A stretch of DNA of 64,000 bases from Candidatus Latescibacterota bacterium (GCA_020352495.1 CP070677.1:1975418-2039417); one strand, 5' to 3'. Counted from the stretch's first letter, positions 1 through 20,456 are shown. Numbers and translations are program-made. Notes: a model not told the origin generated them from the sequence alone.

Positions 1-1425
1 AACGGCGATCCCGAGAAAGGTTGGGTCGGATACAAGGATGCGCTTAAGAGTTACGAAGTCGTAATCGACCATGACCTCATGTTCCTTTCTTGGCATCTTC
101 CGCAAAACGAAGCGCTTCGACGTTGCATGAAGATGTGGCCGAGGAAGAATTGGCTTCATTGGGTCCATTCCGGCCCGAGCTCGGCTCCGGCGGATCTTTG
201 TCATCCGTCGACGCTTCGCTTTACTCATGGCGGCGGGCATTACGTCTATCTCAACGAGACGCAGCGGCTTGAGTATTCGCTCATGATTCAGACGACAAAG
301 GACGAGGTATCGACGGTCTACAATCCTAAGGATATCCGCGACCTTTACGGTTTTTCGAAAGACACGTGCGCCTTGATCGACCGATATGATCTTCTCGACC
401 ATGAGATCCTCATGGTTTATCCTTTCTCGACACCTCGATACAAGGATAAGGGGATTCGGCAGCTTCTTCGTCTATTCTCCAATTGGCGAAAGCAAAAGAT
501 CAAGGCGCGCCTTATTTTGGTAAACGCGCATTGTAATTCGGCGGTCGATCAGCCGAAGCTCAAGGCGATTGAGGCATACGCTACGCTTTGCGAGCTCGAG
601 CTCGATAAGGACGTTATCCTTACCTCGAGATTCGCTGATGAGAACGAGGGGTATAAGCTCTGGCGCTATACCGTTCCTTATAAGGTCGTTCAAGATTTGA
701 TGCTCGCATCGAATATGTTCATCTTTCCCTCGGTCTCGGAATGTTGCTCGTTGATCCAAGCGGAGGCGAGCATCTCCGGAAAATTCATGGTTTTGAACCG
801 CGACTTTCCTCCGATGCTCGAATTCTCCCATCCGGGCGTCTTGACGTACGAATTTACAGGGAACGATCCCGACGCGAACCAGGCTTATTACGAATGCGTC
901 GCGCGGGAGATTTGGGCGAATTTTAAGTCGGACGCGGCGATCATGAATGCGACCAAAGCGCGGACGCAATTCTATAATCGTGATTGGATCTTTCGGACGC
1001 AATTCGAGCCGTTGCTCTATCGGCGGTTCTCCGGCGATCCGAGAGTCGTCCCGGTTGCTCCCGAGCCGGTGCGGCCGGAGCCTCCCTCGGATCTTCCGCC
1101 GCAATTTCGAGCGGCGCTCGAGTTTGAGGGGCCGAGCGGGGAAACGGTCAATGTTCCTATTGAGAAGGTTCTCGTCGAGAAGAAGAAGCCGGCGGCGGTC
1201 ATTAAGGCGACGAAACCGCCGATCGAAGTTCTTTTAGCCAATGCGGAGGAGCGAGCGGCCGAAGAGCCTTCCAATCTGGCATCAACCGATGAGCCGGATT
1301 GGAACGATCCGAAACCGGGTATTCTTTGCCCGATCTTCGGAACTTGCTCCGAGGAGCGCCGGTCGAATTGCTATGAAGAGGCCGGCCATTGCCTGATGTT
1401 GGACGAAGTTATCGAGGCAAAGTAA
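1..1425 (+). CDS. Glycosyltransferase, GT1/GT4-like (5'-partial; the frame is open from position 1)
   Basis: The frame-1 ORF runs with no stop from nt 1 to 1425. The C-terminal half carries the GT4-type motif '...FIFPSVSECCSLIQAEASISGKFMVLN', which resembles the EX7E sugar-donor fold. The C-terminus is Pro-rich. Confidence 0.55.
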   Translation, partial: NGDPEKGWVGYKDALKSYEVVIDHDLMFLSWHLPQNEALRRCMKMWPRKNWLHWVHSGPSSAPADLCHPSTLRFTHGGGHYVYLNETQRLEYSLMIQTTKDEVSTVYNPKDIRDLYGFSKDTCALIDRYDLLDHEILMVYPFSTPRYKDKGIRQLLRLFSNWRKQKIKARLILVNAHCNSAVDQPKLKAIEAYATLCELELDKDVILTSRFADENEGYKLWRYTVPYKVVQDLMLASNMFIFPSVSECCSLIQAEASISGKFMVLNRDFPPMLEFSHPGVLTYEFTGNDPDANQAYYECVAREIWANFKSDAAIMNATKARTQFYNRDWIFRTQFEPLLYRRFSGDPRVVPVAPEPVRPEPPSDLPPQFRAALEFEGPSGETVNVPIEKVLVEKKKPAAVIKATKPPIEVLLANAEERAAEEPSNLASTDEPDWNDPKPGILCPIFGTCSEERRSNCYEEAGHCLMLDEVIEAK

Positions 1426-2051
1426 TGCTCGCCGAAATACTTAACCATCGTTTGAAATACTTTCTTTCGCCGCAGTTCGATCTTTATCGAAACATTCGCG
1501 AGTTTTGGGTCGGACATCGCATGAGGGTCGCTCCGTCGATGCCGATGCGCGTTCTCGATTACGGATGTTGTACCGGCGTTGGCGCGATGCTTCTTCATTA
1601 CTCAGGGGATGACATCGTTGGCATCGATCGTTGCGGCGATTCGATCTCGTTTGCAAAACAGATGTTCGGGCATCTTTGCAACTTCTTTGTTGAGGATTGG
1701 GGAGTAAGGAAACCGCCGGAGTCCGAGGGCGCTTTCGATCTTATAACCTGTATCGAGGTCCTCGAGCATGTCGACGAGTTGAAAATCAAAACGATCCTCG
1801 AGCGGTTCCGGTATGCGCTCGCCGACGATGGCATCGTTGTTTTTTCGACGTTGAATCATAATAGTCAATATCGAAAGAACGATTGTCATGTTGGAAGGTT
1901 TACGGTTAAGACGTTTCGCGAGCTTCTCGAGCCGTTCTTTCCGGGAATCTTCATGACCGATTATTCTTTACAGGGCGTTCTTTCGGACGACTCTTCGAGA
2001 ACGCCGGTCGTTGCAATTTGGGGAGGAGATAGCAGTCATGCCAAGTCTTGA
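1425..2051 (+). CDS. Class I SAM-dependent methyltransferase
   Basis: Motif I 'VLDYGCCTGVGAM' and motif post-I 'IVGIDRC', followed by 'DLITCIEVLEHV'. The start overlaps the previous stop as TAATG. Confidence 0.7.
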   Translation: MLAEILNHRLKYFLSPQFDLYRNIREFWVGHRMRVAPSMPMRVLDYGCCTGVGAMLLHYSGDDIVGIDRCGDSISFAKQMFGHLCNFFVEDWGVRKPPESEGAFDLITCIEVLEHVDELKIKTILERFRYALADDGIVVFSTLNHNSQYRKNDCHVGRFTVKTFRELLEPFFPGIFMTDYSLQGVLSDDSSRTPVVAIWGGDSSHAKS

Positions 2052-2274
2052 CGAAAGGGGCGTCGGCGAATGTCGTCACGACTTTCGCGATGGAGTTTGT
2101 TGGTATTGCGGAAAGAAGGCTCTTAGAGAGTCGGGGGGAAGGGATAAGAAGCCCTCGGACGAGGAAGAGCGGAACGCCTTGAAATCGCTCGCCGAGAAGG
2201 TCGCTGAGGGGCCGGATTTCAAAGCGGAGCTTGAGCGTCTCAAGGAGCGATGCCGGGAGACTCTCGGGCTTTGA
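2011..2274 (+). CDS. Small hypothetical protein (CxxxC...CxxC)
   Basis: ORF with the Cys pattern 'CRHDFRDGVCWYCGKK'. It overlaps its neighbours. Confidence 0.3.
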   Translation: MQFGEEIAVMPSLDERGVGECRHDFRDGVCWYCGKKALRESGGRDKKPSDEEERNALKSLAEKVAEGPDFKAELERLKERCRETLGL

Positions 2275-3047
2275 TCGAACCAAGACCGATATACGAGCTC
2301 GAGGGGCTCTTCGAGGGAAAGAGCGTTATTCTTGCGGGGCCGGCTCCGAGCTTGCTTGATTCTCTCGACTTCCTCGAGGGCCGGCGGGTTATTGCGGTAA
2401 ACTCCGCGGTCGAGCTCGTCGAGAAGCCTTGGCTGTGGATGTACGCCGACAAGCGCTTTAGTCGATACTATCGGGAGTTTATCCGGGGGCGCTTGGCTCA
2501 TGTCCTCGTTCCGATAACCGAGATCGGTCATCGGCGGCATTTCCGGGGAGAGGGGCTCTGGTTTTTTCAATATCGGCGACATACGCCGGATCGGAAGAAG
2601 CGCTCGGGAACGTGGTGGCGCGATCCGAAGTTCAACTATCTCCCGGGGCGTTGCTCGATCCTTTCGAACGCTATGAGTCTTTGTCAATTATTGGGCTTTC
2701 ATAAAGTCCTTCTCGTCGGTTTTGATTTTGAGCTCGCCGGGCGTCGGTACTATGCCTCGGGAATTCGGCGGAATCAGGGACCCACAAAGCGCTGGAGGGC
2801 GCTCCGGTCAAGCCTCCGATGGTTCGTCGGGGCTCGGGCGAAAGGGCTCTGGCCGGATCTCAGGCTTTCTACGGTCTCGCCGGCGTTGCATCGGAATGCG
2901 GACATTCCCCTCGCCTCGAGGGAGGAGGCAAAAGCGCATGGCGCGGAAGATCGCCGGATTCGAAGCCTTTCTGAAGAGTACGTCGCGAGATACGGATTAT
3001 TGCCCGCCGAGATGGATCGAGCGGCTCCGGGCGCGGATTCATCTTGA
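2250..3047 (+). CDS. Hypothetical protein, possible MAF/DUF115-like glycosyltransferase-family protein
   Basis: 'ILAGPAPSL...RVIAVNSA...VLLVGFDFEL' resembles the Rossmann-like GPSL and VN signatures of motility-accessory-factor-type sugar transferases. A paralog-like pattern is at 35758..36516. Confidence 0.4.
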   Translation: MPGDSRALIEPRPIYELEGLFEGKSVILAGPAPSLLDSLDFLEGRRVIAVNSAVELVEKPWLWMYADKRFSRYYREFIRGRLAHVLVPITEIGHRRHFRGEGLWFFQYRRHTPDRKKRSGTWWRDPKFNYLPGRCSILSNAMSLCQLLGFHKVLLVGFDFELAGRRYYASGIRRNQGPTKRWRALRSSLRWFVGARAKGLWPDLRLSTVSPALHRNADIPLASREEAKAHGAEDRRIRSLSEEYVARYGLLPAEMDRAAPGADSS

Positions 3048-3609
3048 GCTCAAGCGGCGGAAGCGCGTTTTTACGAGGATTATTCGGCAGGGGGGGATCG
3101 CCGAGGACAACATCAAGCGGACCTATGTCGTCGGACCCGTCGACCTCCCCCTCGACTTCTTCGTTTCCTCGAGGTGGCATGAGCGCCGGCTCAAGCTTCC
3201 TCTTGCCCATGATCGGATTTCTTGGGGGCTCGCTTGGCTTTGGTGGCAAGGCGCTCGGAGCTATCGGGGGATCCGAGGGCATATCGAGGAGAACGGTATG
3301 CGGAAGCCAATCGAGGCCGAGCTCTATATCAACTATTCTCCGAAAATCAAGCTCTATCACCGGGCGCTTTGCTTCCGAGGGCATAACCTTGATTGGCCAT
3401 TTTTGTTTCTACGACGAGGGAACGAACGGCTCATGATGGCGTGGTTCGAATGGGGCTGGAGGACGATTCCGGCCGCGATTTGGGTCCGGGATTGCGGCTA
3501 TAGCGATGCGTTCTCGGCGCTTTTGCATTACGCGCTCGCCGAGCTTTGTCCGCCGGAATTCAAGACCTCCCGGACGATTTGTCGGCGGGTTAACGATCTT
3601 GGAGTATGA
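2938..3609 (+). CDS. Hypothetical protein
   Basis: An internal ATG at 2938 follows GGAGGAGG. The C-terminal 200 aa are non-repetitive and protein-like ('WFEWGWRTIPAAIWVRDCGYSDAF'). The 5' end overlaps the previous ORF in another frame. Confidence 0.4.
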   Translation: MARKIAGFEAFLKSTSRDTDYCPPRWIERLRARIHLELKRRKRVFTRIIRQGGIAEDNIKRTYVVGPVDLPLDFFVSSRWHERRLKLPLAHDRISWGLAWLWWQGARSYRGIRGHIEENGMRKPIEAELYINYSPKIKLYHRALCFRGHNLDWPFLFLRRGNERLMMAWFEWGWRTIPAAIWVRDCGYSDAFSALLHYALAELCPPEFKTSRTICRRVNDLGV

Positions 3610-3809
3610 AAATGCTGAGTTTAGAAGAACTCCGGGAGGAGCTTCCTTGCTACGCTCCGGAGACTGTTCTCCGGGAATTGATTGAAATCCTCGCTCCGGA
3701 GGGAGGGGATCAAGCTCGCTCGATTGCGATCCAGGATCTCCGGGCGGCTTTAAAGCGAGTCGAGCGTCGGCTTTTTTGCGAAGAATGGAGGGGGGGCGAA
3801 GATGCCTGA
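3606..3809 (+). CDS. Small hypothetical protein
   Basis: The ORF is 67 aa. Its start overlaps the upstream stop as ATGA. Confidence 0.35.
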   Translation: MKMLSLEELREELPCYAPETVLRELIEILAPEGGDQARSIAIQDLRAALKRVERRLFCEEWRGGEDA

Positions 3810-4899
3810 TTATCAAACACCGAAGGTCTCCGTCGTCTTGGGCGTACGGAATGAATATCCCGTTATCCTCGGGACGATGATGAGCGTCGTCGAGGAGCTC
3901 GAGTTTTGGGGATACCCATGGGAGATCATCGTCGTCGACAATCTCTCGACGGACAATACGGCGGACATCCTTGAGGACAAGTTCCGGCGTTGGGTACGCC
4001 ATGGGCTCCTCAAGGTTATTCGTTGGAACGATCGGCCGGCAAACGTTACCGTGCGGAACGTGGGGGCTCGAAAGGCGACGGGCGATGTTGTCTTCCTCGG
4101 GGACGGGCATCTCTCGATCAAGATCGGGACGTTTCACGGCATGATTCAAGGATGGCTAAAGCGAGGCGGGCTTTGGCATTCGGCGATTCATATTTGGGGG
4201 GATACGTCGAACATCCGGTGTTACGGCTATGATTTGAAGCTCGAGGAGAGATTTTGGGGAAATCTCTCGAGGGGGATCCCTGATGAAGTCTTCGAGGATC
4301 CGAAGAAGAAGACGAATCCGAGGCCGTACCGAGTACCGATGGCTTCGCATTGTTGCCTCATGGCCGGCCGGGAAGAGTACCTCGATTTTCGCGGATATTG
4401 CGAGAATTTTCGGTGTTACGGCGGCGGGGAGCCTTATCTTGATCTTCTTTGGTGGATCTTTGGGAAAGAGGTTTGGCTTTATCCTCAAGGCTTGATTCGC
4501 CATGCGTTCGGCGTCAACGCGCGCTGGGAGACGGCTCCGAAGGACAAGAAGACGCGGAACAAGGTTCATCGACGAGATGGCGTCCAAACCCAAGACCTCA
4601 AGGAGGGGGACGAGTATCTTCGTTATTCGCGCGGCTACAATTGGACGAATGAGCAATTCCATTACAATTTTATGTTAAGTGCTTACTGCATAGGCGGTTA
4701 CGCATGGCTTAGGAAGCGTTATGAGGCGTATTGGGAGATGCGGAAAGGGAATTCCCGGTATCTCGAAGATTTGAAGCAACTCCGGCGGGAGGTTCTTCAT
4801 GAAGGGGCGGAGACGCGGGCTTTTATCGAGAGCCGGCAAGTCATGACCCTCGACGACCTCCTCGAAAAAAAGCCTTGGGAAAACTTCGCCGACCTCTGA
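3802..4899 (+). CDS. Glycosyltransferase family 2 (GT-A fold)
   Basis: The N-terminus 'VSVVLGVRNEYPVILGTMMSVVEE...EIIVVDNLSTDNTADIL' matches the canonical GT2 signature, including a DxD-like 'LGDGH'. Confidence 0.75.
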   Translation: MPDYQTPKVSVVLGVRNEYPVILGTMMSVVEELEFWGYPWEIIVVDNLSTDNTADILEDKFRRWVRHGLLKVIRWNDRPANVTVRNVGARKATGDVVFLGDGHLSIKIGTFHGMIQGWLKRGGLWHSAIHIWGDTSNIRCYGYDLKLEERFWGNLSRGIPDEVFEDPKKKTNPRPYRVPMASHCCLMAGREEYLDFRGYCENFRCYGGGEPYLDLLWWIFGKEVWLYPQGLIRHAFGVNARWETAPKDKKTRNKVHRRDGVQTQDLKEGDEYLRYSRGYNWTNEQFHYNFMLSAYCIGGYAWLRKRYEAYWEMRKGNSRYLEDLKQLRREVLHEGAETRAFIESRQVMTLDDLLEKKPWENFADL

Positions 4900-5086
4900 T
4901 ATACTAAGGGGGACTCGAGCTCGGCCGGAGTCGCCGGCGGGTACGCCGGGGGGCTTGTCCTCCCTATAAAAGGCAAGGCCGCGGGCTCGGTCTATTACTC
5001 CGAAAAGACGGGATATACCCGGACCCGAAAAGGATTGAGGGGAGCATACCTTTACGGCTTCGGTCCCGGAGCTAAGATTCTACCTT

Positions 5087-5659
5087 TTGGAGGAGAGCAT
5101 GGCGCAACGCGAGCTTGTTCCGATCTTGGTAAAAATTGGATTGACGCAGACTGGCCGGGCGGAATATCCGCCGTTCAATCAACTCCCTGTCGTCGCGGCT
5201 TCGGGCTTGGACTGGTCTCGGTACGTTGACATTCACGGGACGGGTTGGAAGTACGACAAGACCTCCGGGCATCAGGACGATACGCCGGGAAGTCCTCTCG
5301 GGATGCAATGGGGCGCGCTTCTCGTTCCGGAGCAATTTGCAATTGAGGCGGCGCAACAGTTCCCGACGGTTGTTACGATTCTCAACGAGAACGATTACGA
5401 GAGTTTTCACGATAGTAAAGCAACGATCTACGATCCGGACGAGCTCGTCGATGCGGAAGTCCTCGCGGGGATTCAGGCAAAGGTCAACCTTGCGAATAGT
5501 CTCGCGGCGTCTCAACCGTCGCTCAATCTTGACTTGACCCAGGGGCAAATCGAGGCGCTTGATCCCGACGACGATAAGCCGGGTATTCGGAAAAACAAGA
5601 TGAAGAAATGGTCGGACGCCAAGGCGGCTCGAGATATCAAGATCAAGGATTTGACATGA
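5087..5659 (+). CDS. Hypothetical protein
   Basis: ORF with a GGAGGAG ribosome-binding site (RBS). It is acidic and non-repetitive. Confidence 0.5.
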   Translation: MEESMAQRELVPILVKIGLTQTGRAEYPPFNQLPVVAASGLDWSRYVDIHGTGWKYDKTSGHQDDTPGSPLGMQWGALLVPEQFAIEAAQQFPTVVTILNENDYESFHDSKATIYDPDELVDAEVLAGIQAKVNLANSLAASQPSLNLDLTQGQIEALDPDDDKPGIRKNKMKKWSDAKAARDIKIKDLT

Positions 5660-6333
5660 GGACGAAAGTCCTCGTCTCGTTTCCGACGCCTCCGAAGTTT
5701 CCCTATCTTCATAAAAAAGTCGTCTTCGTTTCTTGGAGAATTCTCGCCGATCGTCGTTACGAGATCGAGCCGATGATTCCGACAAAAGCTCCTTTTGAGA
5801 ATAACCTTCATCACATTTTGAATGACTTCATGACATCCGATTGTACCTTTTGGCTTTCGGTAGATGCCGACAATCCGCCAATAGGCAAGCCTCTTGATCT
5901 TGTCGAGGAGGACCTCGATCTCGTCGGTTATCCGACGCCGGTCTGGCATTTTGATCCCGAGAGTCCCGTTCCCGGCGATCGGCCGTTTTATTGGAACGCT
6001 TACGATTATGTTCCCGAGGAGGATGCTTACGCCGAACATGATCCGAAGGATGGATTACAGCGGGTCGACGCAATCGGAACGGGTTGTTTCTTGGTTCATC
6101 GGCGGGTCTTTGAACATCCGGAGATGCGGAAGGCTCCCTTTCAGCGGACGTACTATGATGATGGAACCGTGAAGAAGGGAAACGACCTTGCGTTCTCCGA
6201 GCGAGTTCGCCGATGCGGTTTTTCAATCTATGCTCACTACGGTTATCCTTGCAGTCATTACGTTGAGCTTGACATCAACGAGGCGGCGGCTGGATTTAGG
6301 AACTCTCATGTAAAGGTTTCAACCGAACGATAA
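5656..6333 (+). CDS. Hypothetical protein, glycosyltransferase-like
   Basis: ATGA overlap with the upstream stop. 'FWLSVDADN' and 'GTGCFLVHRRVFE' resemble GT-A acceptor and C-terminal motifs. Confidence 0.45.
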   Translation: MRTKVLVSFPTPPKFPYLHKKVVFVSWRILADRRYEIEPMIPTKAPFENNLHHILNDFMTSDCTFWLSVDADNPPIGKPLDLVEEDLDLVGYPTPVWHFDPESPVPGDRPFYWNAYDYVPEEDAYAEHDPKDGLQRVDAIGTGCFLVHRRVFEHPEMRKAPFQRTYYDDGTVKKGNDLAFSERVRRCGFSIYAHYGYPCSHYVELDINEAAAGFRNSHVKVSTER

Positions 6334-6360: not shown

Positions 6361-9300
6361 ATGGCTTTACATGATTATCTTCTCGCCGGCGATGAGGCGA
6401 AGAAGCTTTACCTCGTCAGCGCTTTTACGTCGACTTTAAAGGAGAGTCAGGCGTATTCGAAATGTAAGGTTGTCTCCCATGATGGAACGGATACCTTATA
6501 TTCGGACGAGGGCGTCGATAAGCTTTTTTTGATCTCGGGAACCTTTACGACGACCGTGAAATCGTCTTACGTCCATACGGCGCAAGATGGTAAGGCGCGC
6601 GGTATTTCTTGGGATGGAACTAATACTGTTTGGGCCGGAGGGGATAACGACAAATTTTTCCTTCAGTCGGGAGAATTTAGCTCGACGATCAAAACGTCTT
6701 TTGATCATTCCGCCATTCAATTAGATGTCAATGGTGTTTGCGCCGACGAGCTTTCCGATACGAACTTTGCCGGTAAAGCTACGAATGTTTGGCTTTACCT
6801 CATGTCGGGTCAATTTTCCTCGACGATCAATGCTTCCCAAGATGTTAGCTCGATAGATTCAAAGCCTCTCGGTTGCGGGTGGGATGGAACCGATACGTCA
6901 TTTACGGGGGATACGAACGACAAGGTTTACCAAACCAGCGGAAGATTTTCGACGACGATGAAGTCGTCTTTTGACTTCACGGCGATAAGCGCAAAGCTCA
7001 AGGATCTCGAGACGTTCGATACGGATGCTCGTCTTGGTGAAGGGGAGACGACGACGACCTCGCAATCGACGACGCGGAGTACGAGTCAATCGACTTCGCA
7101 ATCGACGACGCGGAGTACGAGTCAATCGACTTCGCAATCGACGACGCAATCAACGACGGCGAGTTCGTCTCAATCGACGATTACGCCGCTCCCCTCGCAG
7201 ACGACTATACAAAGCACGTCGGCGAGCACGTCGCAATCGACCTCGCAATCGACGACGCGAAGTACGAGCCAATCGACGACCCAATCGACGACGCGAAGTA
7301 CGAGCCAAACGACGACGCGGAGTACGAGCCAATCGACCTCGCAAACGACGACGCGGAGTACGAGCCAATCGACCTCGCAAACGACGACGCGGAGTACGAG
7401 CCAATCGACCTCACAGACGACGACGCGGAGTACAAGCCAATCGACGACCCAATCAACGACCGCGAGTACGAGTCAATCGACGACGCGAAGCACGAGCCAA
7501 TCGACAACGGCTTCGACGAGTCAATCGACGACTTATACCGAGAATCCTATCTCATACGAGCAAACGTGGGATTACGACGATCAAAACGTCGATTATTACG
7601 ATGATACCGATCCGTTCTATGAGACGGGCTTTTCTCCTCCGCCGGCTTGGAGCTCCGGGCAGGGCGTTTTTGCTTACGGCACGCTCAACGATCTCGTTCC
7701 TTCGGTCAATACGACGCTTGCGAATTCGGGGGCGGATTGTCGAAGTTATTACTTTGTTAAAGACTTTACGATTTCGAGTAAGCCGGATCTCCTCAAGGTT
7801 GAGATAAACGCCATCCGGGACGATGCCGTTGTCATTTGGGTAAACGGAACGGAAGTCGCTCGAATCAACGTAACGAATCCCCTCTCTCATGGGATGCAAG
7901 CCGATGGCGCGGCCGGCGAGGGTACGCCGTATTCTTGGGAGCTTACCGGGGCGGAGCTCGATCCATTCGTAACGGGGACGAACCGTATCGCGGCCTTCCT
8001 TGTTAACGCGAGCGCTGGAAGCTCGGACGCCGGTTTTGACCTTGAGATGTTCGCGCATTACCAAGGCGTGCCGGGGACGACTTCGCAATCGACCTCCCTC
8101 TCGACATCGGCTTCGACGTCGCAATCGATCTCGACTTCGAATTCGACAACGGCTTCGACCTCGGCTTCGACGACGCATACCGATCCGCCGTTCTTTTGTA
8201 CCGATCGAGACTTCTCGGAGATTGAGAATAACGACATAAACTCCGGAACCGACGCGATGACCGAGGCGTCGGGTATCGAGTATTGGCCGGACGAGGATGA
8301 ACTTCTTGCGGTTTCCGACGATATTCCAACGGGGATGCGGGCGCTCGATCTTCTCGTGAATATCAAGCGGGATATCTCTTATCCTGCCGGTCGGGATGAT
8401 ATCGAGGATATTTGCTACCTTGGCGGGAGTTGGTTTGAGACCGAAGGCTGGAACTTTGCCATCCTCGAGGAGGGGGATTCGGTCCTCGACGCCGCAATCG
8501 TACTTTGTAAGATCGATCCGGGGGCCGGCTCGATTACCGAGTACGAGGTTCATAGTCTCCCGGACATTCCCTGGTATAGCGGGACGTACGGCGGAGAGGG
8601 GGCCGAGGGGCTTGCTTTTGATCCAAACACCGGCAAATTCTATGTTATCAACCAGGCGGATACTCAATCGGACGTCGGTGTTTGGGAAGTCGATACGGCC
8701 AATGGATGGAGCGTAACCCGGCTCTATACTTGGAGCGATACCGTTCTCGTAAGTACGGTCTCCGATCCCGTCGCCTTCGCCGGCGCTTTCCATGGGGCGA
8801 ACCTCGCGGGCTCCGTTCATGGTTCTTTTCCGCGGTCGCTCTTCATTCTCACGAGGAATACGACGGACGATCGCCGGCTCGTTATTCAGCTTGATACGGA
8901 CTCCGGCGAAACGCTCTCGACGTTTCAACATGCCAAGACCGGGCAAGTCGAGGGGATGTGCTTCGATACGTCTCGCGGGGATATGTATCTTTGCTCGGAG
9001 ACGGCTTCTCCCGGTCCTAACTGGTGGCGCTTCTCAACCCTCGGGGCTTTAACCTCGTCGGTCTCGACGTCGCTTACAACGTCTCAGAGTACCTCTCAAT
9101 CGACGACGCGGAGTACGTCGCAATCGACGACCCAATCGACGACGCGGAGTACGTCGCAATCGACGACCCAATCGACGACGCGGAGTACGTCGCAATCGAC
9201 GACGCAATCGACGACGGCGAGTACGCCGGTCTCGACTTCGCAATCAACGACGGCAAGCTCCTCGAATTCGACGTCGCAATCAACGACAACGCCTCCGCCG

Positions 9301-10872
9301 TTTTGCTCGCCGGCGGTCCTCGCCGTGCGGCGAACCGAGGCGACGATTCATTTCGAGGCGCAGCAAGCTTCGGACGCTTATATCGAATACGGGCCGACGC
9401 TCGGATCGATCGACCTTCATTCGACGGGCGTTCAAACGAATGCGACGATCTTCGAGTTTACGATTCCGCAAGATGAGACGGACTATGAGCCAGGCTCCCG
9501 GATCTATTGGCGGCTTCGGAGCAGAGTAACCGGGACCGTTGATTATCACACCGGGATCTCTCATAACTTCGTCCTCGCTCGAGCTTACGACGATTACGAT
9601 CCTTGGACATGGGTCTTTGCCGCCGACTCGAGGAGCTCGAGCGGCGCGACGACCTCCGACGAGTTCAAGGAGGATTTTTGGCCGGCGGTCGGTCCTCCGA
9701 GTTTTCCCGAGGACGAGTTCCTCGTCTTCGGCGGTGATTGGCTCAACAGCGGAACGGGGGATGCTTATTGGCGCGCCGTTCGGAATGCGACGGAAGGGAT
9801 CGGCCGCGAAAGCGAGAAATGTGGCGACCTCCCCGTCTTCCAGGTTATTGGAAATCACGAGGGCGACGCCGCGAGCGCGAACTATACCTCGAGGAAGAAT
9901 CTCTATCCCCTCGGCGTCTTCCTCAACGAGCCGAACTCTCCGAGCCAGACCGACGATACGAGATGGCATGAGCGATACTTCCATTATGTTTGGGGGAATG
10001 CGCTCTTTATTCATCTTCCCGACGACGATGCGATTTACAATTCGGGCGGCTACATTCAATGGTCGGAGCTTCTTACTTGGTTCGAGAATATTTGTTCGGC
10101 GTACAAGCATTATAAATTCAAGTTTCTCGTTACCCATACGTGCGCCGACGAAAGCGATCCAAACCATGGGGATACGATCGCGAACTTTCCGGCGAACCAG
10201 GCGCACATCCGGAACTTTCTCGACGATTACGGCTTTACGGCGCATCTTCACGGGCATTACCATGGTTGGCGCTACCATGAAAACACCGACGGAAGCCGTT
10301 CGCTTTGCGCGAACTTCGGCGCTCCGGTAACGCATACGACCGTCGACGAATGGGTTTCAGGGGATCCCGCCGGGCGTCGTTTTTGGCGCATCCGGATGAA
10401 CCAAGAATGGGATGAGACCGATCAATCCTATGTAACGAATCCCGACGCCGCGACCTTCGAGCTCGTCGATCCGCAGTCGACGGATACCTCGGTTGAGGAG
10501 AGGCATGTTGTCTATGCCTTCGACAATCCGGCGGAGAGCGGGACGACCTCTCAATCGACGACGCAAAGCACCTCGGCGAGTACCTCGCTTTCGACGACGC
10601 AATCGACGACCGCAAGCACCTCGGCAAGTACCTCGGCAAGTACGACCGCGAGTACGTCGCAATCGACAACGCGATCGACTTCGGCCTCGACGACCGCGAG
10701 TACGTCGGCATCCACGTCGAATTCGACGACAAAGCCTCCGCCGATTGGCGCTCTTAACTTCGAACTTCGGGACCTTTCTACGATCCTCGACATTCGCTCG
10801 TCGGACTCTTCCGAGTTGGATATCAAGGATTATTCGTCGAATCTTGATTTAAAGGAAATCTCTTCGCATTAA
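6361..10872 (+). CDS. Giant multidomain protein: Ser/Thr-rich linkers, a propeller-like domain and a purple-acid-phosphatase-like metallophosphoesterase domain
   Basis: The protein is 1503 aa. It has N-terminal 5x approximately 45-aa repeats. There are three low-complexity 'TSQSTTRSTSQSTSQ' linkers. An FN3-like block 'VLAVRRTEATIHFEAQQASDAYIEYGPT' precedes 'VIGNHEGD...HLHGHYHGWRYHE' (the GNHE/GHxH calcineurin-like signature). Confidence 0.8.
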   Translation: MALHDYLLAGDEAKKLYLVSAFTSTLKESQAYSKCKVVSHDGTDTLYSDEGVDKLFLISGTFTTTVKSSYVHTAQDGKARGISWDGTNTVWAGGDNDKFFLQSGEFSSTIKTSFDHSAIQLDVNGVCADELSDTNFAGKATNVWLYLMSGQFSSTINASQDVSSIDSKPLGCGWDGTDTSFTGDTNDKVYQTSGRFSTTMKSSFDFTAISAKLKDLETFDTDARLGEGETTTTSQSTTRSTSQSTSQSTTRSTSQSTSQSTTQSTTASSSQSTITPLPSQTTIQSTSASTSQSTSQSTTRSTSQSTTQSTTRSTSQTTTRSTSQSTSQTTTRSTSQSTSQTTTRSTSQSTSQTTTRSTSQSTTQSTTASTSQSTTRSTSQSTTASTSQSTTYTENPISYEQTWDYDDQNVDYYDDTDPFYETGFSPPPAWSSGQGVFAYGTLNDLVPSVNTTLANSGADCRSYYFVKDFTISSKPDLLKVEINAIRDDAVVIWVNGTEVARINVTNPLSHGMQADGAAGEGTPYSWELTGAELDPFVTGTNRIAAFLVNASAGSSDAGFDLEMFAHYQGVPGTTSQSTSLSTSASTSQSISTSNSTTASTSASTTHTDPPFFCTDRDFSEIENNDINSGTDAMTEASGIEYWPDEDELLAVSDDIPTGMRALDLLVNIKRDISYPAGRDDIEDICYLGGSWFETEGWNFAILEEGDSVLDAAIVLCKIDPGAGSITEYEVHSLPDIPWYSGTYGGEGAEGLAFDPNTGKFYVINQADTQSDVGVWEVDTANGWSVTRLYTWSDTVLVSTVSDPVAFAGAFHGANLAGSVHGSFPRSLFILTRNTTDDRRLVIQLDTDSGETLSTFQHAKTGQVEGMCFDTSRGDMYLCSETASPGPNWWRFSTLGALTSSVSTSLTTSQSTSQSTTRSTSQSTTQSTTRSTSQSTTQSTTRSTSQSTTQSTTASTPVSTSQSTTASSSNSTSQSTTTPPPFCSPAVLAVRRTEATIHFEAQQASDAYIEYGPTLGSIDLHSTGVQTNATIFEFTIPQDETDYEPGSRIYWRLRSRVTGTVDYHTGISHNFVLARAYDDYDPWTWVFAADSRSSSGATTSDEFKEDFWPAVGPPSFPEDEFLVFGGDWLNSGTGDAYWRAVRNATEGIGRESEKCGDLPVFQVIGNHEGDAASANYTSRKNLYPLGVFLNEPNSPSQTDDTRWHERYFHYVWGNALFIHLPDDDAIYNSGGYIQWSELLTWFENICSAYKHYKFKFLVTHTCADESDPNHGDTIANFPANQAHIRNFLDDYGFTAHLHGHYHGWRYHENTDGSRSLCANFGAPVTHTTVDEWVSGDPAGRRFWRIRMNQEWDETDQSYVTNPDAATFELVDPQSTDTSVEERHVVYAFDNPAESGTTSQSTTQSTSASTSLSTTQSTTASTSASTSASTTASTSQSTTRSTSASTTASTSASTSNSTTKPPPIGALNFELRDLSTILDIRSSDSSELDIKDYSSNLDLKEISSH
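6400..7005 (+). repeat. Five coding repeats of about 135 bp
   Basis: 'DK(L/F)(Y/F)L.SG.F(S/T).T.K.S.D.....G..WDGT.T' recurs five times. Confidence 0.6.
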
Positions 10873-10884
10873 AGGAACGAGCCA

Positions 10885-11238
10885 ATGAGTAGGGAGAAAA
10901 CGGATATCCTCAAATTGCATGTCGATCAAATCGAGATGAAGAGGTTCGAAGTTTTTGACTTGAACCTCGTAACCAGCTTCTCTCTATCCTCGGGGACTTG
11001 GGAGCTCAGGGCTCGTCCCGGAGGCTCGGTCGTTTTGTCCGGCTCGGTTACGGTAAACAATTCGGATACCGATCGGGCGGGGAATACGATCAAGACGGTT
11101 TCGATGACGATCGATACTCAAGACACGGATGTCGGAACCGGGCATTATTGGCTTTTGATATACACGGTATTGTCGACGGGACAAACGGACGTTTTCCGTT
11201 ATCCCGTTGAAATGATTGACTTGGTTTCGGAGGTTTAG
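10885..11238 (+). CDS. Hypothetical protein
   Basis: ORF of 117 aa with RBS AAGGAA. Confidence 0.45.
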   Translation: MSREKTDILKLHVDQIEMKRFEVFDLNLVTSFSLSSGTWELRARPGGSVVLSGSVTVNNSDTDRAGNTIKTVSMTIDTQDTDVGTGHYWLLIYTVLSTGQTDVFRYPVEMIDLVSEV

Positions 11239-11241
11239 AAG

Positions 11242-11634
11242 ATGGGAGATTTTGTCCGACCGGAGGAAATGCAGTCGAAGCTTACGGCTCCTGCTCTCAA
11301 AAGTCTCGATACGGGGGATCTCGACGATCTCTATATCTATCCGGCGGAGCGGGTTATCGAGGAGGAGTTTCGGCTTGATCTTGACACCGACGGCTATCCC
11401 GGGCATTTGTCGCTTATGTTTGGTTTGGCGCAAAACGCTCACATGGTTGCGGCCTATCAACAGGATTACAAAAGAGCGGTCTACCTTCTCGTGAATCAAA
11501 TGGGGATGAATCCTCACGGCCATGCAAGCATGAGCGCCGGCGGTTCTTCGGTTGTTTTTGGTGGAAAGATGCCGAGGGCGGTGACTTCTCTTATGAATCG
11601 ATGGGGACGTCCCGGGCGGGTATTTCGAGCGTAA
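11242..11634 (+). CDS. Hypothetical protein
   Basis: ORF of 130 aa with RBS GGAGG. Confidence 0.45.
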   Translation: MGDFVRPEEMQSKLTAPALKSLDTGDLDDLYIYPAERVIEEEFRLDLDTDGYPGHLSLMFGLAQNAHMVAAYQQDYKRAVYLLVNQMGMNPHGHASMSAGGSSVVFGGKMPRAVTSLMNRWGRPGRVFRA

Positions 11635-11637
11635 GCC

Positions 11638-12780
11638 GTGGCAATAAGCATCAAGGAGTCCGAGGTTCAACGACTAATCCGGTTTTACCGGAAGAGTTTG
11701 AAGAAACTCAGCGAGGAGTATGTTTCGGCCTTCGATTTTGAGCGAGTTCGGCTTTTTGCTCAGACGAGAGAAGCTCTCCGCGTCCTCGAGCAACTTGATG
11801 CGAGGACGATGGCATGGGCGAGGCGGAATATCATGCAACTTTATCGGAGAGCTTCGCTCGAGGCGCAACGCCGATGGTTCTTTCGCAAGCGAATGAGTCA
11901 GGAGCGAAGCGCGATCTTTGCTCGAGTTAACGACATGGCTATCCAGGCGCTTTTGAATAATCCGGAGGTTGGATTTCTTACTGGAATGAAAGCGGCGGTT
12001 CAACAGGTCCGCGATCGGATGCGGGTTATTCAGAATCAAGCGAAGGTTCTTCGGCAACATCAAAAGCTTTTCGACGAAACGATTTCGAGAGTCGGGTTCT
12101 TTCAAGGGAAGAACCTAAACGAGATCCGCGACCATTTAGTCCGGGACATGGTAAGCCTTAAGCGTCAATCCGATTTAGTTTGGACGCGGAATGCTTTGGC
12201 GCTTCCTCAAGACAATATCATCCAGAACGTTGCGAACTTGCCTTACGTGAAGTATCGAGATGCGAATGCCTTGACGGGAGTTCGGAACGTTCGAATCGAC
12301 AAGTATGCCGAAATGCTTGCGAGGACAAAGGGCGGGCAAGCGACGAACTTAGCTCGTCGCAATCGGGCGCTTTTGCATGGCGTTAAACTCATGCAATTCT
12401 CGAAAAACAAGCCGCTCCAAGATGATGCTTGCTTTGTTTATATTGGGAGGGCTTTTGCCTTAACTCCCGAAGCAAAGGAGGAGTACGGTGTTCCGCTCCT
12501 CGCCGAGCTTCCGAATGGCGGCTGTCCGGTTCATCCGAATTGCACGCATAATGAGATTCCATTCAATCTCGAATGGAAGCGTCCGGAGGAAATCGCTCTC
12601 GCTTTTATCCCTCCTCCGGCTTGGGCTCTCAATACGACCTTTAGTCGAGTCCAAAAAGAGTACAAGAAGCGAGGCGGGCCGGCGGTTGTTGCGAAGCTCA
12701 ATCAGGCGGCCGCGAAATTCGGCCATACGACCGGAGGGCGCGAGCGGCTTCGAAGAGAGGAAAGGCGGAAACCGAGATGA
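11638..12780 (+). CDS. Phage head morphogenesis protein (Mu gpF / SPP1 gp7-like)
   Basis: GTG start. The C-terminal 'GGCPVHPNCTHNE' matches the HxxC(R/T)C signature of the Phage_Mu_F domain. It sits at the start of the structural module. Confidence 0.5.
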   Translation: MAISIKESEVQRLIRFYRKSLKKLSEEYVSAFDFERVRLFAQTREALRVLEQLDARTMAWARRNIMQLYRRASLEAQRRWFFRKRMSQERSAIFARVNDMAIQALLNNPEVGFLTGMKAAVQQVRDRMRVIQNQAKVLRQHQKLFDETISRVGFFQGKNLNEIRDHLVRDMVSLKRQSDLVWTRNALALPQDNIIQNVANLPYVKYRDANALTGVRNVRIDKYAEMLARTKGGQATNLARRNRALLHGVKLMQFSKNKPLQDDACFVYIGRAFALTPEAKEEYGVPLLAELPNGGCPVHPNCTHNEIPFNLEWKRPEEIALAFIPPPAWALNTTFSRVQKEYKKRGGPAVVAKLNQAAAKFGHTTGGRERLRREERRKPR

Positions 12781-13118
12781 TTCATTTCGCTATCAACGCA
12801 AAGATTCTAACCGTCGAGCGCGCCGGGAAGCTTGATCGATACGGCGATCCGATCTTCGAGGTCGTTGCGATAAACGTTGATTGTAACCTGAAGCAATCGA
12901 CGAGGCGCGTTCTCAATCAAGACGGCGTAACGGCGTCAATCGATGGAACTTTGAAGTGTTACGAGCGTTTCGAGGAGGGGGACGTTTTTACGATCGAGGC
13001 TCGTCTTCCGTCGAGATGGAAGGTCTACAGCGTAACCGAGGCTCAAGATCCGGCGACCGGCGGAGCCCTTTTTTGGTCTTACATGTTGGTCAAGCAACGA
13101 GGGGAGGATGCGGTCTAA
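12777..13118 (+). CDS. Hypothetical structural protein
   Basis: ATGA overlap with the upstream gene. Confidence 0.45.
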   Translation: MIHFAINAKILTVERAGKLDRYGDPIFEVVAINVDCNLKQSTRRVLNQDGVTASIDGTLKCYERFEEGDVFTIEARLPSRWKVYSVTEAQDPATGGALFWSYMLVKQRGEDAV

Positions 13119-13672
13119 TGGCCGAGGTCGATACGTCCAAATTTTCGAAGCGCCTCTCGAAGCTTGCGAAGAAATTGACCGATAAGACAGGCGTTCTCGA
13201 CGACATGGAATTCCTCGCCGACGAGCTCCTCGCTCGAGCCGAGAACTCGCCAGTTCCCTCGGATACCCGAGAGCTTGCCCGATCGGCGGCGACCGTCCGA
13301 AATGACGACCGAAAAGAGGTCGTTTTCGGCTTCAATAAGGTTTACGCCGCATTTCAAGATCAACCGGAAAAGAAGTCGGGGACGATCGTCATCAAGCCTC
13401 GCCGGAAGAAGATTCTCTATATTCCGCTCACGAGCAAGGGTCGCCGTTACCACATGTACGGGCGGGATCCAAACCTCGAGGGGCTCGTCTATGGGCGGGA
13501 TTATATCTTGCTCAAGGAGGTGAGGATTCCGATCAAGGCGTATGGGAGCGAGCTCGGGCCGAACCATTATTTTTCGGAGACAATCAAGCGAAACATAAAC
13601 TTTGTCTTTGAGACTTTAGCGAAGATGATCGGGCGTCGCTTGAAAGCTCAGGAGGGAGGCGGGAATGCTTAA
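13118..13672 (+). CDS. Hypothetical structural protein
   Basis: TAATG overlap with the upstream gene. The ORF is 184 aa. Confidence 0.45.
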   Translation: MAEVDTSKFSKRLSKLAKKLTDKTGVLDDMEFLADELLARAENSPVPSDTRELARSAATVRNDDRKEVVFGFNKVYAAFQDQPEKKSGTIVIKPRRKKILYIPLTSKGRRYHMYGRDPNLEGLVYGRDYILLKEVRIPIKAYGSELGPNHYFSETIKRNINFVFETLAKMIGRRLKAQEGGGNA

Positions 13673-15786: not shown

Positions 15787-18700
15787 ATGGCTGGGACGTT
15801 CGAAGTTGGCTCAATCCTTGCAAGGCTCAAGCTTGATGACTCCGCATGGGTCCGAGGCATCGGAGAAGCAATCGACGATGCAAAGGTCGCCGGGCGGAAG
15901 ATCAAGGAGTTTCTCAAAAAGGGCGAGAAGCTCGTTCTCGATAATCGGGGATTCAAGACGAGCCTTGGCGCGGCGCGGACGCTCGTCAACGTTTTCGTAA
16001 AGGGCGCGAAAGCGGCTTTCGCTACGGTGGGGCCGGCTCTCAAAAAGTCCGTTCAAGTCCCGCTCGCCGCAATCAGGGCGACTCTCAAGGCGCTTACCTT
16101 CGGAGCTCGGTCGGCCGGCCGGGCGTTGAAAGCAGCTTTCCGCGGCGTTGGAAATGTCCTCAGACGTCTTCGCCGGTTCGCGATGTCTTTCCAAGGGGCG
16201 CTCGCCGGGATTGGGCTTGCCTTCTCCGGCTTTTCCTTGATCCAACGAGCGCGAGATGTCGAGGTCCTCGAGCGGGCCTTCCAGAATCTCGCGGCGTCCG
16301 TTGGGGGCGTTGCCGACTCTTTCCTCGGCAAGCTCCGGAATGCGGTCCGGGGGACGGTTTCCGACCTCGACCTCATGCGGACGACGAATAACGCGGTCCT
16401 TCTCGGTGTTGTCAAATCCGAGGACGAATTCTCCGAGCTCGCGGCGATTGCTCGACGCCTTGGGCAAGCCGTTGGACGAGATACCGTCGATGCTATCAAC
16501 GATCTAAGTATAGGCATTGGAAGGCAGTCTCGGTTAATCTTGGACAACTTGGGTCTCATAGTCAAGATTTCTGAGGCAACGGAGACATACGCTACGCAAC
16601 TCGGGAAGAACGTCAACAACTTGACGGACGCCGAACGGCGTCAGGCATTCTTCAATGCGGCGATGGAAGCCGGGCGGAAAAAGGTCAAAGAACTCGGCCC
16701 GGACGTTCGTTCGATTACCGATTCTTGGGGATACTTTACTGCTCAAATCTCAAATACGATCAATACGTTTGCTCGGGCGTTCGTCGGCGGCGGAATATTC
16801 GAATCGATCGCGACGTTTCTCGATCGCAATTCGAAGAAGATTTCTGCGTTCGCGAACTTTGTCTCGAGGGTCTTCTCGAGCGTTATCAAGGAATTGACGG
16901 GGATCTTTGCCGGCCTTACCAAAGCGACCGGGATTGAGGAGTTCCTCGCCGAAGCAACGCGACTCGTCGTTGATGGCATTACGTTTATGCTCGACAACGC
17001 GGCGAAGCTTCTCTTGATTGGGATCCGGACGATCTTTTCGAACTTCTCCGTCGTTGCTCTCAAGCTCGTTCTCGCCGTTCTCGCTCAGATCGGTGTTTCG
17101 ATAATCGGGAAGATCCGCGAGATCATAAATAGCGCGGTCAAGTTCGTTCTCGATCAATTGATTATCGTTGGGTCGAAGATTCCGCTTCTCAACAAAATTC
17201 TGGGAATCGACGATCCGAAGAAAGTTCGGACTGCGCTCGAGGCGAATCGGCAAGTCGCCGAAGAGGAGATGAAGCGAATCGCGGCTTTCATTAAAAGCCA
17301 AAACGAAGAGATCGAGGCGATCGTTTCGGATACCATCGTTGAGGTCGGCGTCGAGCTAAAGGCGGTCGCCGAGGATCTTGCAGAGGTATGGTCGAAGCCG
17401 ACGATGACTTCTTCGCAAAACAAATTCGTAAAGGCCGTCGAAGGATCTCTCGAGCGAATCGGCGAGGCGTTCAAGCGGATGAAGCTCGATATCGCCGATC
17501 CTTTCGCGGACTTCACAACGCTTCGCGTTCAGCGGGAACTTATCAAGGTTGGGAACGCATTCACGAAGATCGTCCAACTTCGCCAGAAGGTTATCGCAAT
17601 TGCGCCGGAGCTTATCTCGGAAGACGATCTCGCCGAAAGCGGCGCGCGACTCAAGAAATTTGAGGGCTTGATCGGAAGTCTCTCCGAGGCGTTTACGAAG
17701 CTCAAGAGCGCGCCTGACGAGGTTCAGGACGAGCTTAAGGATAGCTTCCTCGAGATTTTTGCCAAGGTTCAGGAGGCGCTACAAGAGAACTCCCGCGAGG
17801 TCGAGAGGTTCGCGGCAACCGTTACGGGGCGCATGGAAGATATCGGCGATATTGAGAAGCCGGAGAAATCAATCGTCGGTATTGGAGACGCGATCTTACA
17901 TGCCGCCGAGCAAATCACCGGGGCGAATCCGAAAATCGCGGAGTTGACGAAGCGCCTCGAGGAAGTCCGCGAGGTTTCGAGGTCGTTGCCGAAGGTCGGC
18001 GATCTAATCAATGAAGCCCTCCGGCCGACGTTCTTCCCGCTCGAGGAGTTCAACAAGCTTATCTCTCCGTTCGTCGTTGGCGGTGAACGGTTCAAGGCAA
18101 TTCGGCTCGAGGTCGAGACCGCCGGCCTTACCGAAGCAGAGAAGGAGCTCGTTAAGTTCGACGACATCTTCCGGTCGATTCTCGATCAATTGAGCCCGGA
18201 GGCTCGAAAGAAGCTCGAGGAGACGCGGGCCGCTCTTGCGAAGATGCTCGATCAGCGCGAGGGCGCGAAGCGGATGGAAGAGGCTGAGAAAGCGCTCAAG
18301 CAATTCGACCAACAGCTCGAGCAAGTTCAAGATAATGTCAACCAAGAGCGCCTCGGCGACCTTGCGGTTCAGTTAGATGTCCTCGGGCGATCTCTCCGAG
18401 AGGCGCTTATTTCGGTTCCGGTTGAACGGGCTGATGAGGTCCGCAACAAGTTCCGTCAAATGGCGGGAGCGCTTGGCGAGGCGGAGCTCGTTCGGTTTAC
18501 GAGTCGGCTTTTAGACCTCGAGCAGGGGCTCGAGGATGTTGGTAAGACCGACCTCGAAGTAAAGCTCCAGGGGCTTGCGCGCGAGTTCGATACATTCCGG
18601 ATTGCGATTGAGAGGGCTTCGGGGCTCGAGCTCCCGGAAGCTTCGAGGCTTCTTAAGGAGTTCGGCCGAAACGTTGTTGACTTTCAGGCGCTCCTCGTAA

Positions 18701-19560: not shown

Positions 19561-19574
19561 GCGCGAGGTGAATC

Positions 19575-20456
19575 ATGGGCGAAGTTCCCAATTACATCGG
19601 GGAGTTCAAAAAAGGCGACGCTCTGGCCTATCCGGTCGATTACTACAATTCTTCATGGGAGCCGACGCATTTCGACGTAATCAAGAATTCGACACGGCAA
19701 TACTTGCTTCGAGATGTGGCGATGTACGCCGGTGCGAATCCTTCTCCCGATAACGTCAAATGGATAATTCTAACCTTGTCGGAGACGTTCTTCGAAGATG
19801 GGTTGACTTATACCATCGTTGTCAAAGATCAGGTTGGGCAATTCCCGACGGACACAACCAACTATTTCTTTATAACCTTTCGACTCAAAAATCCCGATCA
19901 TAACTTCTTTCTCGGGACGGTCGAAAAAGACAAAATCTTCTATTTCATTCTTCGTTTAGTCAAATCGGCGGCTTATTACGATGTCTTTGATCCAAAGACC
20001 GGAAATACAATCTCGACCGATACCGCCTTGACTCTTGTGTCAACGCGGATCTTTCGAGGGAGTATCGACACATCAACGTCTGATTTCGTCGAGGGGAGGA
20101 CGTACTTTCTCCGCGTCAAGGATAATACGGGGACGGCGGACTGGGATCGGGTCTACTCTTTTACGGTCATTTCGCCGTTCGAAAAGCATTTCGCGCAAAT
20201 GCTTTCCGCTACCGGCCTCAATCAATTCCTTGATAATTTCGCTTACGATCAGGCGGGCAACATCACAAGCCTTCGCCAGCGGATCTTCACGAGCGCCTCG
20301 GACGTTCAGAACGCAACCGCCGGCGTTACCGATCCGGAGCCCGGAGAGATTCTGAGTATTATCGTTGAGCAAGAGCATGACGTCCCGAGAAACGTTAGGA
20401 CGTCTCATAAGTCTTACGTCGAATTCGAATCGAATTCATTTCCTGCGGACCCGTAA
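19575..20456 (+). CDS. Hypothetical tail protein (distal-tail position)
   Basis: The ORF is 293 aa, directly after the tape measure protein. Confidence 0.45.
   Translation: MGEVPNYIGEFKKGDALAYPVDYYNSSWEPTHFDVIKNSTRQYLLRDVAMYAGANPSPDNVKWIILTLSETFFEDGLTYTIVVKDQVGQFPTDTTNYFFITFRLKNPDHNFFLGTVEKDKIFYFILRLVKSAAYYDVFDPKTGNTISTDTALTLVSTRIFRGSIDTSTSDFVEGRTYFLRVKDNTGTADWDRVYSFTVISPFEKHFAQMLSATGLNQFLDNFAYDQAGNITSLRQRIFTSASDVQNATAGVTDPEPGEILSIIVEQEHDVPRNVRTSHKSYVEFESNSFPADP

Follow-up and report, generated by a model that had tools for sequence, protein, structure and literature searches.

The 64,000-nt stretch of DNA analysed here (the window; Candidatus Latescibacterota bacterium, GCA_020352495.1, CP070677.1:1975418-2039417) carries on its forward strand an open reading frame (ORF) at positions 6361-10872 that encodes a 1503-residue protein, an identical copy of which is present in the public protein library (P0002). 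Residues 975-1391 of this protein (nucleotides 9283-10533) form a purple acid phosphatase (PAP)-like module, composed of an FN3-like N-terminal domain and a calcineurin-like metallophosphoesterase domain, with serine/threonine (S/T)-rich linkers on either side. Profile searches and a structural model together confirm the two-domain PAP/PhoD-type metallophosphoesterase fold of the module, including the FN3-like PAP N-domain.

A first-pass annotation, made from the sequence alone, had proposed a PAP-like metallophosphoesterase with an FN3-like N-domain at 9280-10400 of this giant protein, and Pfam, PDB profile searches and structure comparison agree on that assignment. The Pfam family PF00149 (Metallophos) reaches 27.3 bits with the isolated domain and 25.4 with the full-length protein (gathering cutoff of 21.5), in a match that spans profile positions 30-189 of 191 and leaves motif I outside the aligned part, and a PHROG ‘metallo-phosphoesterase’ matches the protein with an E-value of 1e-7. 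A single-sequence phmmer search of the domain against the PDB returned nothing and a family profile was required: with a 14-sequence profile (A2), the top PDB matches are exclusively purple acid phosphatases (E = 2.6e-12 for mammalian TRAP and about 5e-9 for plant PAPs). With a profile of the N-terminal half of the module (A3), plant PAPs align over the N-domain and motifs I-III, and FN3/titin domains over the N-domain. The AlphaFold2 (AF2) model of the module, built on A2, has a predicted local distance difference test (pLDDT) score of 86.6 and a predicted template modelling score (pTM) of 0.90. Its Foldseek matches are kidney bean PAP (E = 5e-17), wheat and sweet potato PAPs (about 1e-16 to 5e-17), lupin PPD1 and Bacillus subtilis PhoD (PDB entry 2yeq; E = 4e-14), with the single-domain mammalian PAPs ranking after these; the matches span both domains of the plant PAPs, the FN3-like N-domain and the catalytic domain. 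The profile, PDB and Foldseek statistics rule out a chance or artefactual origin of the PAP-like match. On the family side, Pfam PF16656 gives no match to the module at E ≤ 0.1, the PhoD models of Pfam and NCBIfam do not match the domain, and NCBIfam as a whole offers no family for it.

As to position, the domain does lie between two S/T linkers as had been claimed, and the strings quoted in support of it are where they were said to be: VLAVRRTEATIHFEAQQASDAYIEYGP starts at residue 986 (nucleotides 9316-9396), GDW at residue 1125 (nucleotide 9733), GNHE at residue 1164 (nucleotide 9850) and HLHGHYH at residue 1295 (nucleotide 10243). The claimed interval is a little too short, as the domain reaches about nucleotide 10533 (residue 1391).

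Residue-level HMMER alignments place the canonical residue at six of the seven PAP ligand positions, namely D1089, D1126, N1165, H1259, H1299 and H1301 (Table 1). In motif I, Arg1091 stands in place of the His of the canonical DxH found in most non-PAP metallophosphoesterases. In motif II the bridging aspartate D1126 is present and Asn1129 occupies the position of the PAP tyrosine ligand, which is where the module departs from the seven-ligand PAP signature (GDXG / GDXXY / GNH(D/E) / VXXH / GHXH). In the AF2 model D1089, GD1126, GN1165H1166E, H1259 and GH1299xH1301 each come directly after a β-strand, as is expected for a metallophosphoesterase fold, with Arg1091 again at the motif-I His position. 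The alignment of all seven metal ligands, on which the first-pass annotation had made its proposal depend, leaves the proposal largely intact: six are present, and invariant in the close clade, and the tyrosine is absent. The HLHGHYH string that it had cited is conserved in part, since H1299 and H1301 are kept among the homologues and H1295 and H1297 vary. The word ‘purple’ in its strict sense has to be given up. The tyrosine ligand is replaced by asparagine (glutamine in one orthologue) and motif I reads D-x-R, not GDxG or DxH, and we therefore call the module PAP-like. The tyrosine ligand of PAPs gives the Fe(III) charge-transfer purple colour; the Tyr-less site is predicted to lack this colour.

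Table 1. Positions of the features of the 1503-residue protein and of its surroundings, in nucleotides of the window.
Feature	Position	Strand	Basis or remark
Whole gene, ‘beads-on-a-string’: four folded modules, four S/T-rich linkers and a C-terminal tail	6361..10872	+	
N-terminal module, residues 1-221	6361..7023	+	Four repeats of ~45 residues, read directly from the sequence
S/T-rich linker 1, residues 222-402	7024..7566	+	STSQSTTR-type repeats; S/T profile; tandem repeats of 12/24/36 nt
Galactose-binding-domain-like β-sandwich, putative carbohydrate-binding module, residues ~399-570	7555..8070	+	AF2 and Foldseek
S/T-rich linker 2, residues 566-614	8056..8202	+	S/T profile
SdiA-regulated / phytase-like β-propeller module, residues ~604-890	8170..9030	+	Pfam
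S/T-rich linker 3, residues 888-984	9022..9312	+	S/T profile, tandem repeats
FN3-like N-terminal domain of the PAP-like module, residues 980-1071	9298..9573	+	AF2 β-sandwich strands, model residues 6-97; A3 profile alignment
Calcineurin-like metallophosphoesterase catalytic domain, residues 1080-1391	9598..10533	+	PF00149, PDB profile search, Foldseek
Motif I, A-D1089-S-R1091	9625..9633	+	Asp ligand kept; aligned to GDMG of lupin PAP (3zk4)
Motif II, G-D1126-W-L-N1129	9733..9747	+	Aligned to GDNFY (human TRAP) and GDLCY (lupin PAP)
Motif III, G-N1165-H1166-E	9850..9861	+	GNH(D/E) of PAPs; invariant in close clade
Motif IV, His1259 (LVTHT)	10135..10137	+	Aligned to PAP motif-IV His; invariant in close clade
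Motif V, G-H1299-Y-H1301	10252..10263	+	Aligned to GHDH of mammalian PAPs; invariant in close clade
S/T-rich linker 4, residues 1386-1464	10516..10752	+	S/T profile, tandem repeats
C-terminal tail, residues 1458-1503, PPPIGALNFELRDLSTILDIRSSDSSELDIKDYSSNLDLKEISSH, putative virion anchor	10732..10869	+	Tail comparison with orthologues
Downstream co-oriented structural genes: 117-residue protein, 130-residue head-tail-adaptor-like protein, 380-residue minor head protein (SPP1 gp7-like)	10885..12780	+	PHROG, synteny
Major tail protein; tape measure protein	14122; 15787 (downstream)		PHROG
Glycosylation-type cluster: weak GT1-like 448-residue protein, S-adenosylmethionine (SAM) methyltransferase, Maf/MptE-like protein, GT2, further glycosyltransferase	79..6333	+	Pfam, PHROG

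Across the six closest homologues (35-62% pairwise identity, 18.7% of columns invariant), D1089, R1091, D1126, N1165, H1166, E1167, H1259, H1299 and H1301 do not vary, and position 1129 is asparagine in five and glutamine in one (L005). As all of the remaining ligands are invariant against this 18.7% background, the conservation pattern speaks for a working site that purifying selection has kept. Moreover, the combination of D-x-R with G-D-x-x-N recurs in the cellular proteins P0021, a two-domain PAP-like protein which matches Pfam Pur_ac_phosph_N and Metallophos, and P0050, and judged from these sequences it is not an isolated case of decay. P0050 (745 residues) has the variant in the form SDGR…GDLIN, fused to a staphylococcal-nuclease domain, which hints that some variant members act on nucleic acids.

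The family is rare. Searched exhaustively with HMMER, 1.84 billion cluster representatives gave 71 matches at E ≤ 1e-3, 17 of them at E ≤ 1e-10, and a word-indexed search of 5.8 billion proteins gave a single homologue, P0001. In 50,697 phage records tblastn gave no match to the domain, which indicates that it has no close cultured relatives among them; a metagenome scan yielded only the L005 contig once more and one fragment. Seven distant members (P0004, P0008, P0009, P0011, P0014, P0016 and P0017) keep the fold and have lost two to five of the catalytic motifs, which read, for example, GGLIH/GNDE, GSRE/GRYS or GNLAT/GRYD. These distant members resemble, in appearance, a series from enzyme to pseudoenzyme.

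The module of the window could itself be such a pseudoenzyme, a structural or ligand-binding bead of a virion fibre (lectin-like, or recognizing phosphate or other anions) comparable to GAP50 or VPS29. The seven motif-losing members speak for this, as do the presence of the noncatalytic GAP50 (PDB entry 3tgh) and VPS29 among the Foldseek matches and the lack of a Tyr/His ligand at one metal site. However, in the clade of the window protein the other ligands, the His and Glu of GNHE and the motif-I Arg are invariant against a far more variable background, an Asn or Gln at the Tyr position is still able to ligate a metal, and the DxR/GDxxN variant recurs in cellular PAP-like proteins with otherwise canonical motifs. 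We regard the pseudoenzyme as rather unlikely, and lean towards a module that is catalytically active, as its conserved residues would suggest.

Apart from the PAP-like module, the gene encodes three further folded modules, strung on linkers that were delimited by windows of 30 residues with at least 60% S/T and that are coded by DNA tandem repeats with units of 12, 24 and 36 nt. The four repeats of the N-terminal module follow the pattern WDGT[DN]T...D.DK.[FY]L.SG.F[ST][ST]T[IV]K[ST]S[FY], and searches of Pfam and of PDB sequences found no relative of this module. The β-sandwich module was modelled with moderate quality (pLDDT of about 80 in the core and 61.8 overall), and its Foldseek matches are sugar-binding jelly-rolls of GH2, GH35 and GH78 enzymes (E of about 1e-4). 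A galactose-binding-like module of this kind co-occurs with the PAP-like domain in most members of the family, among them P0003, P0005, P0006, P0009, P0011, P0014, P0016, P0017, L004 and L005, and the L004 protein is a compact two-domain version made of a sugar-binding-like and a PAP-like domain. The β-propeller matches Pfam PF06977 (SdiA-regulated) above threshold (31.7 bits, cutoff 21) and Phytase-like PF13449 below it (25.3 bits, cutoff 27.6), and has no sequence relatives in the PDB. The C-terminal tail has a PPxGAF motif followed by short repeats of the L-x-[LI]-[RK]-D-x-S type; similar tails end the P0001 and L005 orthologues, and the tail may be a virion anchor. Four long ORFs that overlap the gene, at 7025-7807 (+), 7552-8946 (−), 9280-10335 (−) and 9539-10330 (+), were rejected as genes: their products are Arg/Ser-rich, and they are most likely to be by-products of the repeats and composition.

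The genes next to the 1503-residue gene are 40-66% identical to their counterparts in two metagenomic relatives, L001 and L005, from which we take the slot that it occupies to be orthologous in the three phages. For the downstream structural genes, the identity to L001 and L005 is 44-66%. In L001 the slot holds a 471-residue protein (P0001) in which the PAP-like module is accompanied only by a short S/T linker and a tail like that of the window protein. In L005 (6782-13198) it holds a 2138-residue protein with a β-helix-like N-domain, a propeller, a sugar-binding-like domain, the PAP-like module, a further domain and the tail (at about 13090-13195), in an order that differs from that of the window protein. 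Only the PAP-like module and the C-terminal tail are common to the three orthologues. As read from these sequences, the module and the tail of about 45 residues are the constant core, and the other modules have been exchanged among the three syntenic phages. The linkers of the L005 protein repeat the unit SSYSSTASS, compared with STSQSTTR in the window protein. This difference, together with that in module order, suggests that modules could be shuffled by recombination within the repetitive linker DNA.

The window is phage DNA, and both here and in related phages the 1503-residue gene lies in, and is co-oriented with, a block of structural genes. It is separated from its neighbours by gaps of 27 and 12 nt, in which no promoter- or terminator-like sites were seen. 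The homologue contigs examined, six in number, all have the module in phage structural regions: P0003 (on L007) follows a cement-protein gene and a presumed capsid gene, P0005 (on L008) closes the series of late genes, between a gpJ-like protein and the integrase, and the L004 two-domain protein is encoded downstream of a 1328-residue gpJ-like protein. Fusions within the family are to fibre-type domains such as β-helix, Kelch and FN3. We consider it probable that the 1503-residue protein is associated with the virion, judging from gene position, from synteny over the six phage contigs and from the analogy with gp26 of Microbacterium phage Rowlf described below.

The same context bears on the possibility that the protein is an auxiliary metabolic enzyme for phosphate scavenging, of the PhoD/PhoA type of the Pho regulon, made during infection and acting outside the virion. 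PAP and PhoD are indeed classical phosphate-scavenging enzymes, giant viruses have PhoD-like proteins and the annotation of Anabaena phage Elbi includes a ‘phosphatase’. Yet the module is embedded in a multi-module protein whose gene is co-oriented and near-contiguous with connector genes, and the homologues on the six contigs examined all lie in structural regions, fused to fibre-type domains, which makes this explanation highly improbable.

Elsewhere in the window, genes for replication proteins (an SNF2-type helicase, a primase-polymerase and a Dda-like helicase) are found at 36.8-43.6 kb and transposase-like and ParB-like genes at 56.0-57.6 kb. The best matches of the helicases are spread over unrelated phages. 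No tRNAs were found in the 64 kb, nor was a terminase, portal or major capsid gene recognized there, the structural block beginning with connector genes. Scans of genome contigs with the PAP alignment and with the transposase-like ORF returned nothing.

Upstream, the gene adjoins a glycosylation-type cluster in which the Maf/MptE-like protein matches a ‘sialyltransferase’ PHROG. The cluster is kept, at 35-57% identity, upstream of the L005 orthologue (positions 43-6179 of L005, a 90-kb IMG/VR contig), where the MptE-like protein scores above the Pfam cutoff; in the window and in L005 alike, the glycosyltransferase genes adjoin the structural gene that would be their target and are conserved with it. 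On L007 and L008, by comparison, no glycosyltransferase family is recorded, and their homologues P0003 and P0005 are without S/T linkers. With two contigs against two, this co-occurrence of linkers and glycosyltransferases is only suggestive. The window also contains a second giant mucin-like ORF at 23787-32609 (+), encoding a 2940-residue protein in which a domain of about 170 residues (…NPEVV…GHP.K..WE.G.WK.R…FRW.N..W…GIDKP), assigned to no family, occurs some nine times, with S/T-rich linkers of up to about 540 residues in between. Finally, in mycobacteriophages too, glycosyltransferases encoded by the phage lie beside structural genes, and their capsid and tail-tube subunits are reported to bear glycans (Freeman et al. 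2023, as cited in PMC12619734). The conservation of the cluster, the linker-less homologues without glycosyltransferases, the second mucin-like ORF and the mycobacteriophage reports together suggest that the S/T linkers may be O-glycosylated by the products of the upstream cluster. The mycobacteriophage account cited here describes modification of short C-terminal segments of capsid and tail-tube proteins (PMC12619734), whereas in the phage of the window the candidate targets are the long mucin-like linkers of giant proteins.

We may then wonder what such a protein would do. In the mechanism that we propose, it would serve an uncultured, siphovirus-like phage as a hypervariable and modular appendage. 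The C-terminal tail would fix it in the virion close to the head-tail junction, with its modules held outward on long flexible S/T-rich linkers that are probably O-glycosylated by the adjacent glycosyltransferase cluster. The sugar-binding-like modules would dock on a glycopolymer of the host surface, and the PAP-like module would hydrolyse phosphoester bonds of that polymer (teichoic-acid-like, a phosphoglycan, or phosphorylated capsule or lipopolysaccharide) at a nonchromophoric dimetal centre with D1089, D1126, N1165, H1259, H1299 and H1301 as ligands and N1129 replacing the PAP tyrosine. Hydrolysis would thus help the virion to reach its receptor. To the chain as a whole, that is, a virion appendage with a PAP/PhoD-type phosphoesterase that cleaves phosphoesters of host-surface polymers, we give slightly less than even weight, and a host-surface phosphoester polymer as the substrate class is proposed only tentatively, with PhoD as the precedent; the first-pass annotation had thought of teichoic acid, capsule or extracellular DNA.

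Several points weigh against this proposal. With Asn1129 and Arg1091, the metal site has neither the PAP Tyr nor the motif-I His, which makes metal occupancy and activity uncertain, and, to judge from the seven distant members with lost motifs, phage proteins can evidently retain the fold when catalysis is gone. The carbohydrate-binding assignment is a putative one that leans on a mediocre model (overall pLDDT of 61.8) and on Foldseek E-values of about 1e-4. The window has no recognized portal, terminase or major capsid gene, and the immediate upstream neighbour of the gene is the glycosyltransferase cluster, not a head gene.

The module could also serve as a nuclease or phosphodiesterase, borne by the virion or released at lysis, acting on the extracellular DNA of a biofilm matrix or on nucleotides and not on wall glycopolymers. 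The Mre11/SbcD nucleases of the metallophosphoesterase superfamily do give weak profile matches, and the staphylococcal-nuclease fusion of the cellular P0050 points the same way. However, it is PAPs and PhoD, not nucleases, that match best in sequence and in structure, and the partner modules are sugar-binding-like and β-propeller domains, not DNA-binding ones, so that we regard this role as distinctly improbable. A larger version of the proposed appendage can also be drawn: a virion with long, heavily O-glycosylated mucin-like fibres (the 1503-residue protein and maybe that of 2940 residues) bearing swappable enzyme and lectin beads in a cellulosome-like manner, among them, as the conserved catalytic bead, a tyrosine-less PAP-type phosphodiesterase that would cut phosphodiester-linked polymers of the host surface, with the glycosyltransferase/Maf-like cluster glycosylating the linkers. 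As a complete picture this is decidedly unlikely.

The metallophosphoesterase/PAP fold itself is well known, and PAP-like genes, though uncharacterized, have already been annotated in structural regions of phages. The new elements are a rare and highly divergent lineage in which the site lacks the Tyr and reads D-x-R / G-D-x-x-N, its place as the constant core of a mucin-linked protein whose several modules are shuffled, and the association of that protein with a conserved glycosyltransferase cluster. Should the module prove active and virion-borne, binuclear phosphoesterases of the PAP/PhoD type would be an added enzyme class for the breaching of envelopes by phages, joining the glycosidase, lyase, esterase and GDPD-type depolymerases, and the unexplained ‘purple acid phosphatase’ genes of Microbacterium phages would gain a testable function. 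With intact and decayed active sites in one family, the lineage is also a natural series in which to follow how enzymes of phage appendages become pseudoenzymes, and the mucin-like linkers with their conserved glycosyltransferase cluster suggest a so far undescribed form of virion glycosylation.

Among known systems, the plant and bacterial two-domain PAPs (kidney bean, PDB entries 4dhl and 1kbp; sweet potato, 1xzw; wheat PAPhy, 6git; lupin PPD1, 3zk4) share the architecture of the window module and the order of motifs I-V with Asp, Asp, Asn, His, His and His ligands, at an identity of only 11-13%. They have the Tyr ligand and a motif I of the form G-D-x-G, whereas the module has Asn1129 and A-D-S-R and is embedded between S/T linkers in a phage protein. 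B. subtilis PhoD has a similar two-domain PAP-like fold and is described as an endo-acting teichoicase, a phosphodiesterase of wall teichoic acid (PMC7086022). As a structural match with this activity, it provides a precedent for the fold on a phosphodiester polymer of the cell wall; however, PhoD is a host enzyme of the Pho regulon, whereas the window module is encoded by a phage and matches no PhoD family model.

The nearest parallels in phages are of a looser kind. Microbacterium phage Rowlf (L006, PP978829) encodes gp26 (18355-20409), annotated as ‘purple acid phosphatase’, with the head-to-tail adaptor gp27 directly downstream; such genes are also reported for cluster EK phages, and the function is stated as unknown (PMC12352085). 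The gp26 gene is a PAP-like gene in a siphovirus structural block, at the same relative position as the gene of the window, yet its product has 684 residues and is without the S/T-linker multi-module architecture. An hhalign comparison of gp26 with our family profile gave a nonsignificant probability of 4%, and tblastn likewise showed no sequence relationship. Seen from the sequences, the two are alike in fold class and in gene position, and homology is not demonstrable. BFVD contains a few more proteins with a PAP-like fold from phages and giant viruses, such as gp352 of Bacillus phage G. By description, ORF22 of Thermobifida fusca phage P1312, with 1096 residues, a metallophosphatase domain and a CBM4_9 module (PMC4569894), resembles the window protein as a large phage protein that joins a metallophosphatase domain to a carbohydrate-binding module; it has a predicted signal peptide and is read by its authors as a secreted, DNA-degrading protein of superinfection exclusion (PMC4569894).

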